This document shows positions 1 to 8,320 of a stretch of 64,000 nucleotides of DNA, piece after piece. Position 1 is the stretch's first letter. Every line of letters starts with the position of its first letter. This DNA is from Eledone cirrhosa (lineage: Eukaryota), in contig OZ024742.1 in assembly GCA_964016885.1 (NCBI GenBank), positions 25,234,001 to 25,298,000 on the forward strand. Reading direction: 5' to 3'. A model generated the notes under the pieces. The model did not search any database and was not told where the DNA came from. It saw only the letters and a list, made by a program, of their open reading frames with translations. Made by a program: the position numbers and the translations under genes.

Positions 1-60
<60 letters not shown>
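1..60. repeat. (TA)n microsatellite, runs off window start
   Basis: Pure TA dinucleotide run directly abutting the LINE 3' tail. Confidence 0.98.
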
Positions 61-63
<3 letters not shown>

Positions 64-1862
64 TCATCATCATCATCATCATCATCAACGTTTAACGTCC
101 GTGTTCCACGCTTGCATGGGTTTGGACGGGGGTAGTCCCACTTGAGGCAAGAGTGATTGTCTTGCTCGCATAGGACTGTCTGGCAGGTTTTCTACAGCTG
201 GATGCCCTTCCTAACACCAACCACATTTACAGTGTGGGTCTGGGAGGTTTTTACCGTGTTGCCTACACGGCCACATTACAGCGTGGACTGTGTGTTTTTT
301 TGTCGTGACACCTACACGATCTCATTTGTTTCGGCCTGGATGGCGCGGCACCAACATAACTTTACATAGAACGGGGTGGGGTGGGGGTGGTGGGACGGGG
401 TGTATTTTGTTAGAGATGCCTACTGGCTGTAGTAGGTTTTACTATGTATTTAGGTAAGGCGGGTCTTCTCTGTTACTGAGTACCGCCAAAGGTCTCAGTC
501 CAGTGACATTGTCTTGGAGAGGTGTAAGTGTGTGAGGTCGGAGTTTATCAGCTCGTCCAAGGTTTTTCTAGGTCTGCCTATTCCGTGGCTACTGTCTATC
601 TTTATTGCCCTGCACTTTGTTATACAGCTATCGACTTTGATGCGCATCACGTGTCCATACCAACGTAGCCTTCTCTCGAGTAAACAACATCTGATCCCTC
701 TTATTTCTAATTTTTTTCTTAGTTCGTTTATGCTTTGCCGTTCACGTATATTACTGTTACACATCCAGCGGAGCATGCAAGCTTCGTTCCTCTCTAGTCT
801 GCGTATATCCTCTGCACACAATGCCCAGGTCTTACTGCCGTGCAACATTGCTGTTTGTATGCAGGCATCGTACAACCTGCCTTTAATTTTTAGGGAGAAC
901 CCTTTAGCAGCTAATAGTGGTATAAGCTCTCTGAACTTTTTCCAACCAGTTCTGACTCTAGCTACTGTACTTTCAGAGCACCCTCCCCCACTGCTGATTT
1001 TATCGCCCAGGTAACGGAAGCTGTCCACTATTTCTATAGAACCCTCTGCGCAATTGAAAGAGCTAGTATTTTGTGGGCACTTGCTGCTACTTATTGCACC
1101 AGAGCACCGGCCACATGTAAAATCTATGTTCTTAGTTAGCTTACCTGTGATCCCACTACATCTTTTATGCACCCATACTTTGCATTTAGGACATAAAATG
1201 GAGTTTCTACCTACGCCTTTCCTACACACTGAGCATGACCATTTCCCAGAAGGGACCGCCGCCTTATTTTCTTTCCTACAAACTAGAACTTTAGTCTTAG
1301 CCAGGTTAATTTTAAGTCCTTTTGATTCTAGGCCGTGCTTCCATGTTTGGAATTTCTTCTCTAGCTCGGCCATTGATTCAGCTATGAGTGTCAGGTCGTC
1401 TGCGTATAGGAGTTCCCATGGGCAGCCGGTCTTGAACTCCTCTGTTATAGCCTGAAGGGTAATAATAAATAGTAGGGGGCTGAGAACAGAGCCCTGATGG
1501 ACGCCAACTTTTACGCTAAACTCTTCACTATATTCGTTGTTATTTCTAACCTTGCTGACTGTTTCTTTATACATGGCTTGTATAGCTCTCACAAGCCATT
1601 CGTCAACACCTAGTTTTCTAAGAGCCCACCAGATAATGGATGCGGGGGACTCTGTCGAAGGCTTTCTCCAAGTCGACAAAAGCTAAGTAGAGGGGTTTAC
1701 CTTTAGCTAGGTACTTCTCCTGTAGTTGTCGTACAATGAAAAGAGCGTCTGTGGTACTTTTGCCTGACACAAACCCGAACAGCATTTCATCTAGGTCAAT
1801 TCTCTCTCTGATCAGCTGCGCTATTACTTTTTCCGTGACCTTCATGACCTGGTCGATTAATT
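61..1862 (-). mobile_element. 5'-truncated RTE-clade non-LTR retrotransposon (LINE) with 3' UTR and (ATG)n tail
   Basis: The minus strand encodes RT motifs FVDLEKAFDRVPR, GVHQGSVLSPLLF, LLYADD and FRYLG, and the RTE C-terminus RRLRWYGHVMR...GRPRKT. A ~360-bp 3' UTR ends in ...GGACGTTAAACG followed by a (ATG)n tail (61-86). Homology stops at ~1862 (KLIDQVMKV), so no endonuclease domain is present. Confidence 0.93.
450..1862 (-). pseudogene. RTE reverse transcriptase ORF remnant with one frameshift and one premature stop
   Basis: ORFs 1618..1923 and 495..1679 join through a frameshift near 1640-1650 (AFDRVPR / IIWWALRKLG). YADD is at 1395-1406. TGA at 495-497 interrupts MSLD*DLWRYSVTEKTRLT and is probably a CGA>TGA change. 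The likely natural stop TAA is at 450-452. Confidence 0.88.
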
Positions 1863-1864
1863 TA

Positions 1865-1896
<32 letters not shown>

Positions 1897-2143
1897 AACG
1901 GAAAAAATGAAACGATATTTCATTTCCCACTCTTAGTACGGCTGTTACTTAAATATAAGTATGTACACGTACATACATATATGTATACCGACGTACAGTA
2001 GTATGTATATATATATATACATACATGCACACATATATATATGCACGTATGGATTCACCGAACATTTATTATAATGCTCGGTGTGTTTGTAAACAAACAT
2101 CCCGTATTAAGCCGTAGTGTCTAGCAACCACCGTTGCTCGTTT

Positions 2144-2230
2144 GTTCAACACTGACAAAGGAACGCTGTACTAGTTTCAAGCTTGTTAGCTATCGTCAGC
2201 AACGTATACCTTCCTGCCAGATTGTTGAAC
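2144..2230 (-). ncRNA. Type I hammerhead ribozyme motif (copy 1, minus strand)
   Basis: Exact reverse complement of 2412-2498. Confidence 0.78.
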
Positions 2231-2411
2231 GTATATACTTACCTTATGCATATTAACGGCTGAGTAGCCCAATATGCATATCGAGTGGGTTAATCGGCCG
2301 GGTGCACCGAAAACGATAAACGGAAAAAATGAAACGATATTTCATTTCCCACTCTTAGTACGGCTGTTACTTAAATATAAGTATGTACACGTTATAAATA
2401 TAAGTATATAC

Positions 2412-2498
2412 GTTCAACAATCTGGCAGGAAGGTATACGTTGCTGACGATAGCTAACAAGCTTGAAACTAGTACAGCGTTCCTTTGTCAGTGTTGAAC
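2412..2498 (+). ncRNA. Type I hammerhead ribozyme motif (copy 2)
   Basis: Stem I ACGUUG (2437-2442) pairs with CAGCGU (2474-2479). Core CUGACGA is at 2443-2449, stem II is AGCU-AACA-AGCU, and GAAA is at 2464-2467. Stem III is the palindrome ACUAGU, with cleavage triplet GUA (cut predicted after 2473). Stem I extends through CUGGCA/UGUCAG and GUUCAACA/UGUUGAAC. Confidence 0.8.
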
Positions 2499-2833
2499 AA
2501 ACGAGCAACGGTGGTTGCTAGACACTACGGCTTAATACGGGATGTTTGTTTACAAACACACCGAGCATTATAATAAATGTTCGGTGAATCCATACGTGCA
2601 TATATATATGTGTGCATGTATGTATATATATATATACATACTACTGTACGTCGGTATACATATATGTATGTACGTGTACATACTTATATTTAAGTAACAG
2701 CCGTACTAAGAGTGGGAAATGAAATATCGTTTCATTTTTTCCGTTTATCGTTTTCGGTGCACCCGGCCGATTAACCCACTCGATATGCATATTGGGCTAC
2801 TCAGCCGTTAATATGCATAAGGTAGGTATATAC

Positions 2834-2920
2834 GTTCAACAATCTGGCAAGAAGGTATACGTTGCTGACGATAGCTAACAAGCTTGAAACTAGTACAGCG
2901 TTCCTTTGTCAGTGTTGAAC
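2834..2920 (+). ncRNA. Type I hammerhead ribozyme motif (copy 3)
   Basis: Same motif 422 bp downstream (core at 2865-2871, predicted cut after 2895). It has one G>A change at 2850 in the extended stem I. Confidence 0.8.
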
Positions 2921-3104
2921 AAACGAGCAACGGTGGTTGCTAGACACTACGGCTTAATACGGAATGTTTGTTTACAAACACACCGAGCATTATAATAAAT
3001 GTTCGGTGAATCCATACGTGCATATATATATGTGTGCATGTATGTATATATATATATACATACTACTGTACGTCGGTATACATATATGTATGTACGTGTA
3101 CATA

Positions 3105-3606
<502 letters not shown>

Positions 3607-3634
3607 TATGTATATATAATATAAGTATGTATAT

Positions 3635-3680
3635 CAGCTGTACTAAGAGTGAGAAATGAAATTTCAATTTTTCCATTTAT
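3635..3680 (+). repeat. Diverged terminal fragment of the 422-bp unit
   Basis: CAGCTGTACTAAGAGTGAGAAATGAAAT...TTTTTCCATTTAT aligns to 2698-2748 with CpG-type changes and is followed by (AT)n. Confidence 0.7.
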
Positions 3681-3894
3681 ATATATATATTTGTATATTT
3701 ATATATATATATATATATAGGGTGGGTTTGTGGAGGCATATGTTCATTAATAGCTTGACTATGAAAGATTTGCTTTATTAAGAGTGGCGCAGATGTAAAA
3801 AGTATGTCTGATAGCTTGGATTCTTAGTCATGAGCTGGTATGTTGTGTGTTTGTGACTTCTTGATAAGGCTGATTTCATTGGATAAGGATAGAG

Positions 3895-4250
3895 ATAACT
3901 TAAGCGAGCATGCTTCGATGGTTGTGCAATGTTAATGTGTTAGAATAAAAAAGCAAGGATGAACTGATAGAGAAACTGCATATAAGAGGAATCAGATATA
4001 GTGTACAGGAGAGAAGACTGCATTGGTATGGACATGTGATGCACATAGATGATGATCACTGGGTGAAGAAGTGCCAAGTAATCCCAGTGGAAAGAAGCCA
4101 CAGTAGAGGAAGACCAAGGATGGAAGTGGTGAGAGCTGATCTCAGATTGATAAAGCTCATAGAAGAGATGACAAAGGAACATGAAAAGTGGAGAGATGTT
4201 GAGAATGACCCATCCAACCCATGCAAGCATTAAAAAACAGAAGTAAAAAA
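3895..4250 (+). mobile_element. Degenerate RTE LINE 3' fragment
   Basis: Translates to ASMLRWLCNV...IRGIRYSVQERRLHWYGHVMH...KKC...RGRPR, homologous to the C-terminus of the first LINE. It ends in CCATCCAACCCATGCAAGCA, which matches the RTE 3' terminus. Confidence 0.85.
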
Positions 4251-4317
4251 CAAAAGTAATTGGTCAGTTCAAAAAGATGTCTCAGTGATTGGCAACTTTT
4301 ATATAACCTGATATGTG

Positions 4318-4472
4318 TCTAGCAAATTGGCAATCATTAGAATGTCAGATAGAATGTTTCGAGTATTTGTTTCTGTTCTCTTCTCTTTGAGTTCAAATCC
4401 CACCAAGGTCAACTTTACTTTTCAGCCATTCGATAACAATAAAAAATACCAGTCAAGTACTGGAGGTCAATT
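4318..4472 (+). mobile_element. Degenerate SINE, second family
   Basis: GAGTTCAAATCC B-box, then GGTCAACTTTACTTTTCA...GATAA...TACCAGTCAAGTACTGG. Same family as 9285-9478. Confidence 0.7.
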
Positions 4473-4943
4473 CTTCCTCTATATTTCTTTTGCACTTACA
4501 TTTTCTCACTTTCTATCTTTCTTTGGAAAAAAATCTGTGGTATTCAGACCTGGAGAAGAGCTAGGTTCCGTCAGCTGTAAAAGTGTCCTAGAAATGCCAT
4601 ATGTCAATACGATGCCCCTGTAGCCTCATCAAAAGTGACAGGACCATACATACATATTGCTAGCAAATGAGGGACAACTGTCTTGCAAAAGACTGGAACA
4701 GCTTACTGTGCTTTCATTAGAGATTTTAGTTAAGTTTATTAATGACTGTTACTAATTGATGGCTTTAATATGTAACGTCTATTTTCTATGCTGACAGAAC
4801 TTGGACATTTGTCAAGAATTAAGTCAGTTCTTATTCAGGGTTACTGTCATTCTAGATGGTCTTGAAAAACTAAGTCTATTTCTTGGACATTTGAAGCTGG
4901 CAGAGCCAATACCACCTTGTGTCTGACAACTGATGCCTTTTAG

Positions 4944-4983
4944 AGAAAGGGAGAGAGAGTGAGAGCGAGAGAGAGAGAGAGAA
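4944..4983. repeat. (GA)n microsatellite
   Basis: Imperfect GA run. Confidence 0.85.
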
Positions 4984-5169
4984 GTTGTGAGTGATGTGAT
5001 TGTTATAGGATTGAACATCCTCGTCCTCCCCCTCCTCCAAAAATGCCACCTTTACAACCATCACCACTACTACGTCCTCCACCATAAATATTATCATCAC
5101 TTTTACTGAAATGCTAATGAATGACTGCCACAACAACAACATCAGCAACAAAAGAAACATATAGAAAAT

Positions 5170-5378
5170 AAGGATTTCTAATTTAGGCACAAGGCCTGCA
5201 ATTTAGTAGTAAATTAATTTATTAATTTGACCCCAGTATTTGACTGGTACTCTATGTTATCACCTTCAAAAAGAGGAAAAGCAAAGTTGACCTCTACAAG
5301 ATTTTAACTCAGAATTTAAAGAAGCAAACAAATATTATGCTAAGCAATTGACTGTTGCTCTACCGACTCTTCCAATCC
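5170..5378 (-). mobile_element. Degenerate SINE, second family, minus strand
   Basis: Reverse complement reads CTGAGTTAAAATC...GAGGTCAACTTTGCTTTTC...GATAA...GTACCAGTCAAATACTGGGGTC...GGCCTTGTGCCTAAATTAGAAA, matching 9285-9478. Confidence 0.75.
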
Positions 5379-5409
5379 AATGCCCTGATAGAGACAATTA
5401 TTTTCTTCT

Positions 5410-5685
5410 TTGGCCACTTACTCCTGAGAGGGTTGTGAAGCAGAGTGCTCAAACACTCTCTCCATCAGCTCCTGTCGAAAGAAACTGTCTCCAAACTGAT
5501 ACGGATGGATCCTCAAGTAAGACCAGGATAGCTCATGGATGTTATCCAACTATCTTACTTGAGGTGTGCTCCTGGGTTTCATGCCGGATAGTTTTGCCAG
5601 TAAAATCTGTCCAGCAATTCTTTCCTGAGCCATTCTAACCAATGCTCATAATATCAGAGCTGTGATCTCTCAATTTGGAGAGAAA
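5410..5685 (-). mobile_element. Degenerate 3' fragment of a different RTE lineage (Expander/Rex3-like C-terminus)
   Basis: Manual translation across frameshifts gives LQIERSQL*YYEH/VRMAQERIAGQILLAKLSGMKPRSTPQVR*LDNIHELSWSYLRI...DRS*WRECL. This resembles the IERSQLRWFGH..RMP.ER...RPRGRPRTRW pattern. Confidence 0.65.
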
Positions 5686-6074
5686 ATTATCACTTATTTA
5701 TATATTTTTTATTTATTTAATTACATTTTCTTTACAGCTGCACTGAGCAATGAATAATTAATAATTAATTCACAAAAAAGTAATATTTAATCGAAACAAA
5801 AAAAATGGAAAGGGAAAGAGGAAAAAGAAAAAAAATGAAGAAAGCAATGAATGAAAGTGAGAAAGGGAGGGAGTGGCTGACTACACCCCAGTCTGTGTGG
5901 TGATTGGGCCATGCCCAACGGACAGAATTTTGAAAGAATTGCCACTGCAACAGCCACCCCACCTCACTAGGCTCCTACCTATCTGCTGTCTATCTGATTT
6001 TTCAGAGAAAATCATCAATATGGGGGACCAAGGACACTTGAACTCTCGATGGTGACAACTCTATAATAATAACA

Positions 6075-6712
6075 GAACAACACCAAGCTTGGTGAGTCAC
6101 AACACCACAACCACTATGGTCACTGTTGCTACTACTACAACCAGCAACATCACCACCATTGTTGAAATTGCTGCTGCAGACCACCAACATCACCGCCAAC
6201 TCTAAAATCACCATGCCCACTGGTACTCTTGCCACCAATACTAACATCAAAACTACCACCACATCTCCTGTTATTGCCAGTGATATGACTGCTACCAGCA
6301 CCACCACCACCACCCATACTGGTGCTGTTGCCACCAACACCACTACCACCAACACTATGCCCACTGCTACTCTTGCCACCAATACTAACATCAAAACTAC
6401 CGCCACATCTCCTGTTATTGCCAGTGGTATGACTGACACCACCACTGGTGCTGTCGCCACCAGCGCCACTACCATAACACCACTACCACCAACACCATGC
6501 CCACTGGTACTGTTGCGATAAACATTATCACCCATACTTCCACCTATACGACCATAAATACTACCACTACCATCACCAACACTACCACAACTATGGCCAC
6601 AGGTACTGTTGCCACTAATACTACCATCAACACTACCACCAACACCACCACTCACATCACCACTACACCCATCATCACCACCAAAACCATCATCACCACC
6701 ACCACCACTGTG
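6075..6712. repeat. Degenerate (ACC/ACT)n low-complexity tract with internal 144-bp-spaced duplication
   Basis: ACC-rich tract. The block ACTCTTGCCACCAATACTAACATCAAAACTACC.CCACATCTCCTGTTATTGCCAGTG occurs at 6225 and 6369. Confidence 0.85.
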
Positions 6713-7044
6713 AAATGAAGAAGAAAGATATTAAAACATATCTTTCTCCTACATTTACAGAGAAACTATGCAAAATAACAATCTCTCTCCATCACTCTCA
6801 CACTCTTATACTCTGTTCCTTACTCTCTCTATTCTCTTTGTCCTTTCTGAAAACCATTCTTCTCTCTTCTTGGATGACTGAACTTTTGCTCTGATCTTTA
6901 GCAAACTGCCAGAAGTTTTCAAACCCAACATCTCATATACGAAACTAAATTTCCTGCTTGGGATATATCTATCCTCTTCAGCTTTGCTCTTATATCTTAT
7001 GGACAGCTGATGCAGCTTCTTTGCAGAGACATGAGCAAAAACAT

Positions 7045-7456
<412 letters not shown>

Positions 7457-7800
7457 GTGGGGGGTGATAGATATTGTGTAGTTTCATTATTATAGGATAT
7501 AATGTTAGAATTGCTGGTTGGAATATATATTTGCTTCAAGTAAACAGTTTTGCTGCTATCAATGGCCACTTAATCTGGATAAAGAAAATTTCCTTGAGCC
7601 AAAAGAAGTGAGGAAGATGTTTCTAGAACCTAGATTATTTATCAATTGTTTCTCTTCGCACTCCAACTTGCTAAACATCTCACCATTATTCAATGTTTCA
7701 TATTTGTAACTTCCGGCATTTTCCCTTCAAATCTTTGTCCAGTCTCTTTTTAACATAGTTCTTTATTTCCGCTTTCTTATGTACCTCCTCCCACACAATT

Positions 7801-7830
7801 GTATATACATACATGCATACATACACACAC

Positions 7831-7879
<49 letters not shown>

Positions 7880-8320
7880 TATAACTATATATATACACAC
7901 ATATAAATGTGTATATATACATATATATATATACACATGTGTATATATATATGTATATGTGTGTGTGTGTATATATATATATATACATATATATATGTAC
8001 ATATATCTATATATATGTATATATATATGTGTGTATATATATATGTATATATATATATATTTATATATATGTGTGTGTATGTGTGTGTATGTGTGTGTAT
8101 GTGTGTGTATGTGTGTGTGCGTGTGTATATGTATAAATATTTTTATATACATATATATATATACACGTGTATATATATGTATATGCATATATAAATATAT
8201 GTGTGAGTGTATGTAGAGATAGCGAGTGAGGAAAAAGGAGAGAGAGAGACAGAGAGAGAGAGAGATAAGTAGATATATTAACTCAAACACACATGTATAC
8301 ACACAAACACACATTTACAT
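7801..8320. repeat. Compound (TA)/(TG)/(CA)/(GA) microsatellite cluster
   Basis: Direct inspection. Confidence 0.95.

Follow-up and report, generated by a model that had tools for sequence, protein, structure and literature searches.

The three hammerhead motifs found in the window, a 64,000-nt stretch of Eledone cirrhosa DNA, are parts of one 1.2-kb insertion (1894–3111) set in (TA)n, in which a minus-strand arm is joined head-to-head to a plus-strand arm at their 5′-truncated ends (Table 1). Our preferred reading, held with slightly better than even confidence, is that this is a recent insertion of a 422-nt hammerhead family having no ORF, probably written in trans by a Penelope-like reverse transcriptase/endonuclease from both ends of a DNA break, on a template continuous through the ribozyme cut site that was most likely a ligated RNA circle. 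A minus-strand copy of the hammerhead had been noted in the original prediction and does exist, but its place as the other arm of the same insertion had been missed. The long-end arm differs from the reference unit at 2 of 499 nt and the two arms differ from each other at few bases only, a near identity which indicates that the insertion is young. The short filler at the central junction probably arose by end joining. Folding of the complete unit as a circle gave −146.9 kcal/mol (z −7.0, 0 of 60 shuffles), to which self-complementary TA-rich tracts contribute. In line with the non-coding nature ascribed to it, the longest ATG-started frame of the unit is 51 aa. No ORF encoding reverse transcriptase (RT) plus GIY-YIG was found in it, and the unit is therefore not an autonomous Penelope-like element (PLE); the 1894–3111 insertion behaves like a substrate of a PLE.

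Table 1. Features of the insertion, its hammerheads and the sister families (window positions unless a locus is named)
Feature	Position	Strand	Remarks
Left (TA)n target remnant	1881–1893	.	adjoins A-run
Long-end arm, 499 nt	1894–2392	-	unit 199–422 then 1–275; fixed long end into (TA)n
Penelope-type tail, 59 nt (unit 217–275)	1894–1952	-	found at long end only
Long-arm hammerhead copy	2163–2205	-	motif
Hammerhead core of long arm	2169–2199	-	motif; predicted cut between 2169 and 2168
Central head-to-head junction	2393–2403	.	11-nt filler resembling a local copy of 2373–2384
Short-end arm, 708 nt	2404–3111	+	unit 353–422, 1–422, 1–216; ends into (TA)n
Hammerhead 1 with extended bulged stem I	2412–2498	+	stem I to stem I, 2437–2479
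Hammerhead core 1	2443–2473	+	motif; predicted cut after 2473
Complete 422-nt unit, cut site to cut site	2474–2895	+	
Internal tail copy between the two putative reverse-transcription starts	2690–2748	+	contains hairpin
ATGCATAT	2785–2792	+	family majority and sister families read ATGCAAAT
Hammerhead 2	2859–2901	+	motif; fold
Hammerhead core 2	2865–2895	+	motif; predicted cut after 2895
Right (TA)85 target tract	3107–3276	.	
Sister family X	L044 8250–8830		opposed arms seen
Sister family Y	L158 2900–3700		opposed arms seen
Sister family W	L298 1230–1650	-	

Hammerhead motif, copy number and covariation

The plus-strand hammerhead reads ACGTTG (2437–2442), CTGACGA, T, AGCT, AACA, AGCT, T, GAAA, CTAG and TA, with CAGCGT following the predicted cut, and its two copies are spaced 422 nt apart. 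CUGANGA, GAAA and UH are present in type I order, while the G10.1–C11.1 pair is absent, stem II being closed by U.U. Three type I hammerheads, two on the plus strand with cuts after 2473 and 2895 and one on the minus strand, had been predicted, and the motif was found as described. The label "minimal" is not quite apt, since helix I (6 bp plus the extension), helix II (4 bp) and the palindromic helix III together correspond to the canonical metazoan type I form (PMC4209133). It had also been cautioned that a U.U pair may lower activity; the pair is indeed U.U, but the concern is weak because the axolotl HHR_Amex2, which likewise has U.U closure and a 2-bp helix III, cleaves, 22% as a monomer and more as a dimer (PMC7229834).

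A bulged extension of stem I is predicted, and the region 2412–2505 folds at −29.6 kcal/mol, a stability that 0 of 200 shuffles reached (z −3.8); when just the 44-nt core is folded, z is −0.3. An Rfam comparison, which the original prediction had recommended as a check, listed no hammerhead family at E ≤ 10 in 1–8000 or 2400–2520, its output for the region being otherwise low-complexity miRNA noise, and the hammerhead call therefore rests on motif and covariation. When the lone motif was folded, the core CUG was predicted to mispair with stem III (p 0.7–0.9), and ACUAGU can pair between two copies (predicted −6.8 kcal/mol). These predictions make dimer cleavage plausible for this family, and both fit the dimer cleavage described in PMC4209133.

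The exact 31-nt core was present in 2,710 genome copies and its reversed control in none, so that the motif is not a chance occurrence; allowing two degenerate positions raised the count to 23,965 in the 3-Gb genome. The 422-nt family is thus dispersed at high copy number, as retrozymes are. For covariation, 23 related sequences selected by core pattern (17 of this family, 4 of sister family X and 2 of Y) were aligned over 92 columns with no gaps, and the invariance of the core in this alignment is by construction, since the rows were picked by it. Two-sided changes were found at 10 of the 16 helix pairs across subfamilies and the two sister families, and 93.8% of the cells were paired, compared with 30–49% when the partners were slid; the covariation looked for across genomic copies was thereby obtained. 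Helix III is invariant in these rows, and different palindromes (CGCG, CATG) occur in sister families. A majority sequence was also taken from 30 older copies whose anchor lies outside the core. Relative to the young unit it is changed at 3 of 43 hammerhead positions, namely a compensatory stem I swap from U.G to A-U and a loop base, and at 20 of 227 positions outside the hammerhead. Conservation of both core and stems relative to the flanks had been anticipated; the stems do covary, but in these older-subfamily copies the core by itself is not significantly conserved (0 of 11 vs 20 of 227 outside). As judged from the alignments, the hammerhead appears to be a selected structure.

Sister family X (L044, L109, L180) is 61% identical to the 422-nt family over the unit, and further sister families of equal layout are Y (L158, L107) and W (L298, L299, L305, L308). 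Stem II is closed by U.U in the 422-nt family and Y, by G-C in X and by A.A in W. The motif ATGCAAAT is common to the 422-nt family, X and W; it is a candidate either for an octamer-like motif or for the remnant of a Penelope start codon. Newt satellite 2 may carry an snRNA-type promoter. Contigs of four runs of unrecorded kind, compared with 2300–3100, also point to the family, at low depth, in three further organisms.

Fixed ends, inverted arms and targets

To characterize the ends, we analysed 80 of 420 exact long-end junctions, taken as they follow one another on contig C1. Of these 80 insertions, 40 have an inverted arm measuring 50 nt or more, and 35 of the 40 arms stop at unit 215–219, i.e., 56–60 nt short of the long end (unit 275); two ran off the edge of the retrieved sequence, one of them reaching a short end when extended, and three end elsewhere. 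The remaining 40 long ends lack an inverted arm; each belongs either to a solitary arm or to a short piece of tail, in most cases within TA-rich sequence. The family therefore combines two fixed 3′ ends that bound a tail, an inverted 5′-truncated arm and a (TA)n target, as expected of mobilization by a PLE. The hallmark of a PLE is an inverted 5′-truncated copy together with a tail confined to one end (PMC8557442, PMC3846280), and the Anolis PLE enzyme cleaves AT-rich DNA on both strands and uses two internal RNA start sites, the interval between them being the tail (PMC11167929). The Penelope link that had been suggested is supported by this end geometry together with the (TA)n targets, and we consider it very probable that the 422-nt family is a Penelope-mobilized retrozyme.

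PLE inversions have been attributed to self-priming with palindromes at the junctions (PMC3846280). Such palindromes are mostly missing in the 422-nt family, and a fold-back or self-priming origin of the inverted arms was rejected since the 5′ ends of the two arms coincide in 4 of 40 insertions, with 2.9 expected. Overlaps of at least 2 nt at 15 of the 40 arm junctions and inserts of at least 5 nt at 10 of them suggest host end joining. The arms carry concordant alleles at site 317 in 21 of 22 cases (11.4 expected), indicating that both derive from one RNA or one source locus; an allele discordance at site 253 was an artefact of anchoring on that base. Locus L040, where a local duplication has apparently placed several almost identical two-armed copies less than 7 kb apart, was excluded as a segmental duplicate from the arm-allele and variant-direction tests and was included in the 47 multi-copy insertions described below.

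Template and proposed cycle

At least one cut site is passed by 51 of the 80 long arms and 30 of the 40 short arms, and 11 of the 80 long arms cross at least three. Near the cut site one stop was counted vs 3.0 expected (148 approaches, 115 arms), and stops are spread fairly evenly along the arms at about one every 600 nt; an apparent stop cluster at unit 390–411 was gone on an exposure-based test (8 vs 7.3). Since the arms continue past the cut site with no sign of a stall there, an excised linear monomer is not the usual template, and the linear 422-nt monomer put forward in the original prediction as the mobilized form is not supported.

Of the variants scored within the 47 multi-copy insertions, 38 are fixed, being present in every unit that covers the site, 125 are singletons and 15 occur in subsets, the last being confined to 6 internally mixed insertions. 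Some of the fixed variants are private to one insertion (6/6, 9/9 units), and their fixation in every unit of both arms calls for a single-unit stage. In one insertion (L285), 15 units of one arm are identical, as are 4 of the 5 units of the opposite arm. By comparison, the 16-unit arm of L284 falls into blocks of 3, 1 and 12 units, each with its own haplotype, and does not match the opposite arm. One circle could not produce this pattern; either the template changed or the array expanded later at the DNA level, and such expansion could also account for long uniform arms. An array of about 46 units spanning 20 kb (L033–L034, about 90% identical) is probably a satellite-like expansion. The fixed variants include 11 A>G and 5 T>C, an excess that falls short of significance (p 0.10); the corresponding counts are 11 vs 2 among single-coverage variants and 10 vs 12 among singletons, and RNA-editing scars in the family variants are only suggestive. 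Singletons comprise 24 G>A and 11 C>T when three mixed insertions are set aside (p 0.09), and we do not claim an excess there either.

In the cycle we propose, a tandem genomic copy would be transcribed, neighbouring hammerheads would pair via the palindromic stem III and then cut, and a host ligase would close the 422-nt monomer into a circle. A Penelope protein would bind the tail region and cut both strands of (TA)n, cDNA would start from unit 275 at one DNA end and from about 216 at the other, and each enzyme would run back around the template and fall off at random, about once per 600 nt, after which host end joining would fuse the two cDNA 3′ ends head-to-head. Given Penelope mobilization, a ligated circle is the probable template. 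In its favour, circular forms of the coral, mussel and axolotl retrozymes accumulate (PMC7229834); against it, only one of nine Xenopus retrozyme dimers cleaved in vitro (10.64898/2026.07.22.740005). A wider proposal, in which a Penelope enzyme pair primes twice and rolls round a ribozyme-made circle, thereby explaining PLE inversion and tail, and in which there are at least four self-promoted circular parasites (ATGCAAAT), is offered tentatively and falls somewhat short of even confidence.

The same Penelope twin priming could also operate with internal initiation on an uncut transcript of a multi-unit array, the hammerhead being used elsewhere and arrays growing at the DNA level. In vitro, the Anolis PLE initiates internally on unprocessed RNA and inserted it uncut, the hammerhead being dispensable and no reads ending at the cut site (PMC11167929). 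The predicted inactive fold of the monomer, the block haplotypes of L284, the subset variants in 6 of the 47 insertions and the existence of the L033–L034 array all agree with this. However, linear RNA copying keeps or shortens arrays, yet long arms crossing three or more cut sites are present; the private variants fixed in all units of both arms require the single-unit stage, and the hammerhead fold has been kept by covariation across families about 61% identical. We regard an uncut multimer as a serious but less likely template. Use of the excised linear 422-nt monomer, with tandem units produced by template jumps, is highly improbable: the 13 copies beginning exactly at the cut site are matched by 18 starts at a control position (8 resembling a 1-nt insertion; totals not normalized), stops at the cut are not in excess, and each of hundreds of jumps would need to be exact.

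Two further explanations dispense with a separate Penelope-mobilized family. The copies would be truncated terminal repeats of an undiscovered autonomous PLE if the layout of the unit, which is that of a PLE pseudo-LTR with tail, and the ATG 37 nt after the long end (about 41 nt in Hydra family B) were taken at face value; this is very unlikely, as units join 275 to 276 directly, with no ORF and up to 16 per arm, and the PLE protein hits within 400 nt of the unit are separate at the four loci inspected (see below). Least probable of all is a DNA-level satellite or a fold-back/MITE-like element with the hammerhead as a relic, to which the inverted arms and the large older arrays would correspond, but whose origin is at odds with unequal and fixed ends, variably truncated centres, 5′ ends lacking a mirror match and covarying helices.

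For the return of animal retrozymes to DNA, PLEs as mobilizers and circles as templates were proposed, not shown, by Cervera and de la Pena in 2020 (PMC7229834). The 422-nt family makes the footprint of this step measurable: each DNA end has its own start site, two in all, and the cDNA continues across the ribozyme site. The footprint names the RNA, a cis signal (the 59-nt tail), the target and candidate enzymes (the 713-aa Hydra-type and 784-aa Neptune-type ORFs), components that the published in vitro PLE assay could test directly, and its two arms are relevant to the origin of the inverted 5′ copies in Penelope insertions. The roughly 24,000 motifs make the family a major source of young insertions in the genome, and possibly of circular RNA as well. 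If the wider proposal above is true, the genome would record rolling-circle retrotransposition, and a clade of circular RNA parasites would be radiating on Penelope machinery.

Related elements, candidate partners and neighbouring sequences

The 422-nt family consists of ORF-less units within the 150–450 bp range, each with a hammerhead and at least two in tandem, and by this sequence definition belongs with the metazoan non-LTR retrozymes, the class to which it had been assigned. Like those described in PMC7229834, it comprises thousands of copies of a GC-poor, ORF-less tandem unit that measures a few hundred nt and carries a single type I hammerhead, its unit being at the upper end of their size range; its copies show, in addition, two arms, two fixed ends and a tail. 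The words "inverted" and "cephalopod" are absent from the accessible text of that paper, and the accessible text of an octopus repeat annotation (PMC13282606) does not mention ribozymes. Searches of the openly accessible literature revealed neither a cephalopod retrozyme nor a two-armed, tailed footprint reported for any retrozyme. Li, Clavereau and Pollet (2026; 10.64898/2026.07.22.740005) consider retrozymes to be non-autonomous PLE derivatives. A Penelope origin is concluded there as here, based on co-occurrence and pLTR homology in Xenopus, whereas our basis is the insertion footprint; the preprint favours local tandem growth from the pLTR, whereas no homologous pLTR was found here, and its main text does not contain "tail", "initiation" or "mollus-".

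Like endonuclease-bearing PLEs (PMC8557442, PMC3846280), the family exhibits the inverted 5′-truncated copy, the one-end tail and partial tandems, and its (TA)n targets are as in the Hydra and Naiad PLEs; a hammerhead in the repeat is a further common feature (PMC8557442, PMC4209133). It differs from them in having no ORF and many full units in both arms, and its tail is 59 nt vs 30–40 nt in published PLEs and 37 nt in the Neptune-like family of this genome. Non-autonomous multicopy PLE derivatives are mentioned for Chlamys (MRC1) in the PLE literature.

Two young autonomous PLE families with intact ORFs, one Neptune-like and one Hydra-type, were found in the genome, both ending in (TA)n. The former, whose clade we presume from its motifs, has a 784-aa ORF with RVT_1 and GIY-YIG, terminal ends 37 nt apart and copies 97–100% identical in all 150 scored matches. 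Its copy at L101 (3064–6713) has overlapping ORFs, 455 aa (no Pfam match) followed by the 784-aa RT-EN, and no canonical hammerhead was detected by pattern in its 1.1-kb repeat. The Hydra-type family (L289–L292) is very abundant, with an intact 713-aa ORF carrying the DKT, RW and CxCX5C motifs given in PMC8557442 (section 11); many older Hydra-type families were encountered as fragments only. A hammerhead-like motif of the Hydra-type PLE has CAGAAGA in place of CUGANGA, and its stem II closure is also U.U. In a comparison covering a few of the many PLE families, neither of these two showed clear terminal homology to the unit: about 14 nt are alike at the Neptune-like short end, and 22 nt match Hydra B at E 0.12.

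A PLE ORF with RT/GIY-YIG linked to the unit, as envisaged in the original prediction, did not emerge, the PLE protein hits within 400 nt of the unit in the screened loci being separate insertions where inspected (L057, L110, L128, L165). The seeming chimera of unit and Hydra ORF at L057 is a unit arm inserted into that ORF with a 9-bp target duplication, and L308 was discarded as an autonomous ancestor because other listed copies of its Hydra 3′ region continue into their own terminal repeat.

In the window itself, the two-armed insertion sits at the truncated end of a 5′-truncated LINE (60–1860, minus strand) that has an (ATG)n-type tail and an ORF (498–1682) matching RVT_1 and, in a PHD-like manner, PHD; the motifs of this fragment are presumably RTE-type, and its RT ORF was rejected as the partner. 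Directly after (TA)85 there is a tRNA-like SINE head (3277–3420; weak Rfam tRNA hit at 3283–3340), and an isolated 49-nt tail fragment of an older subfamily (3632–3680, 81% identical) runs with its long end into (TA)n. CA-rich, threonine-codon-like repeats with 144-nt duplications were observed at 6100–6710, and the remainder of the window (10165–64000) is taken up by a 57-bp satellite with about 945 copies and a strong strand skew.
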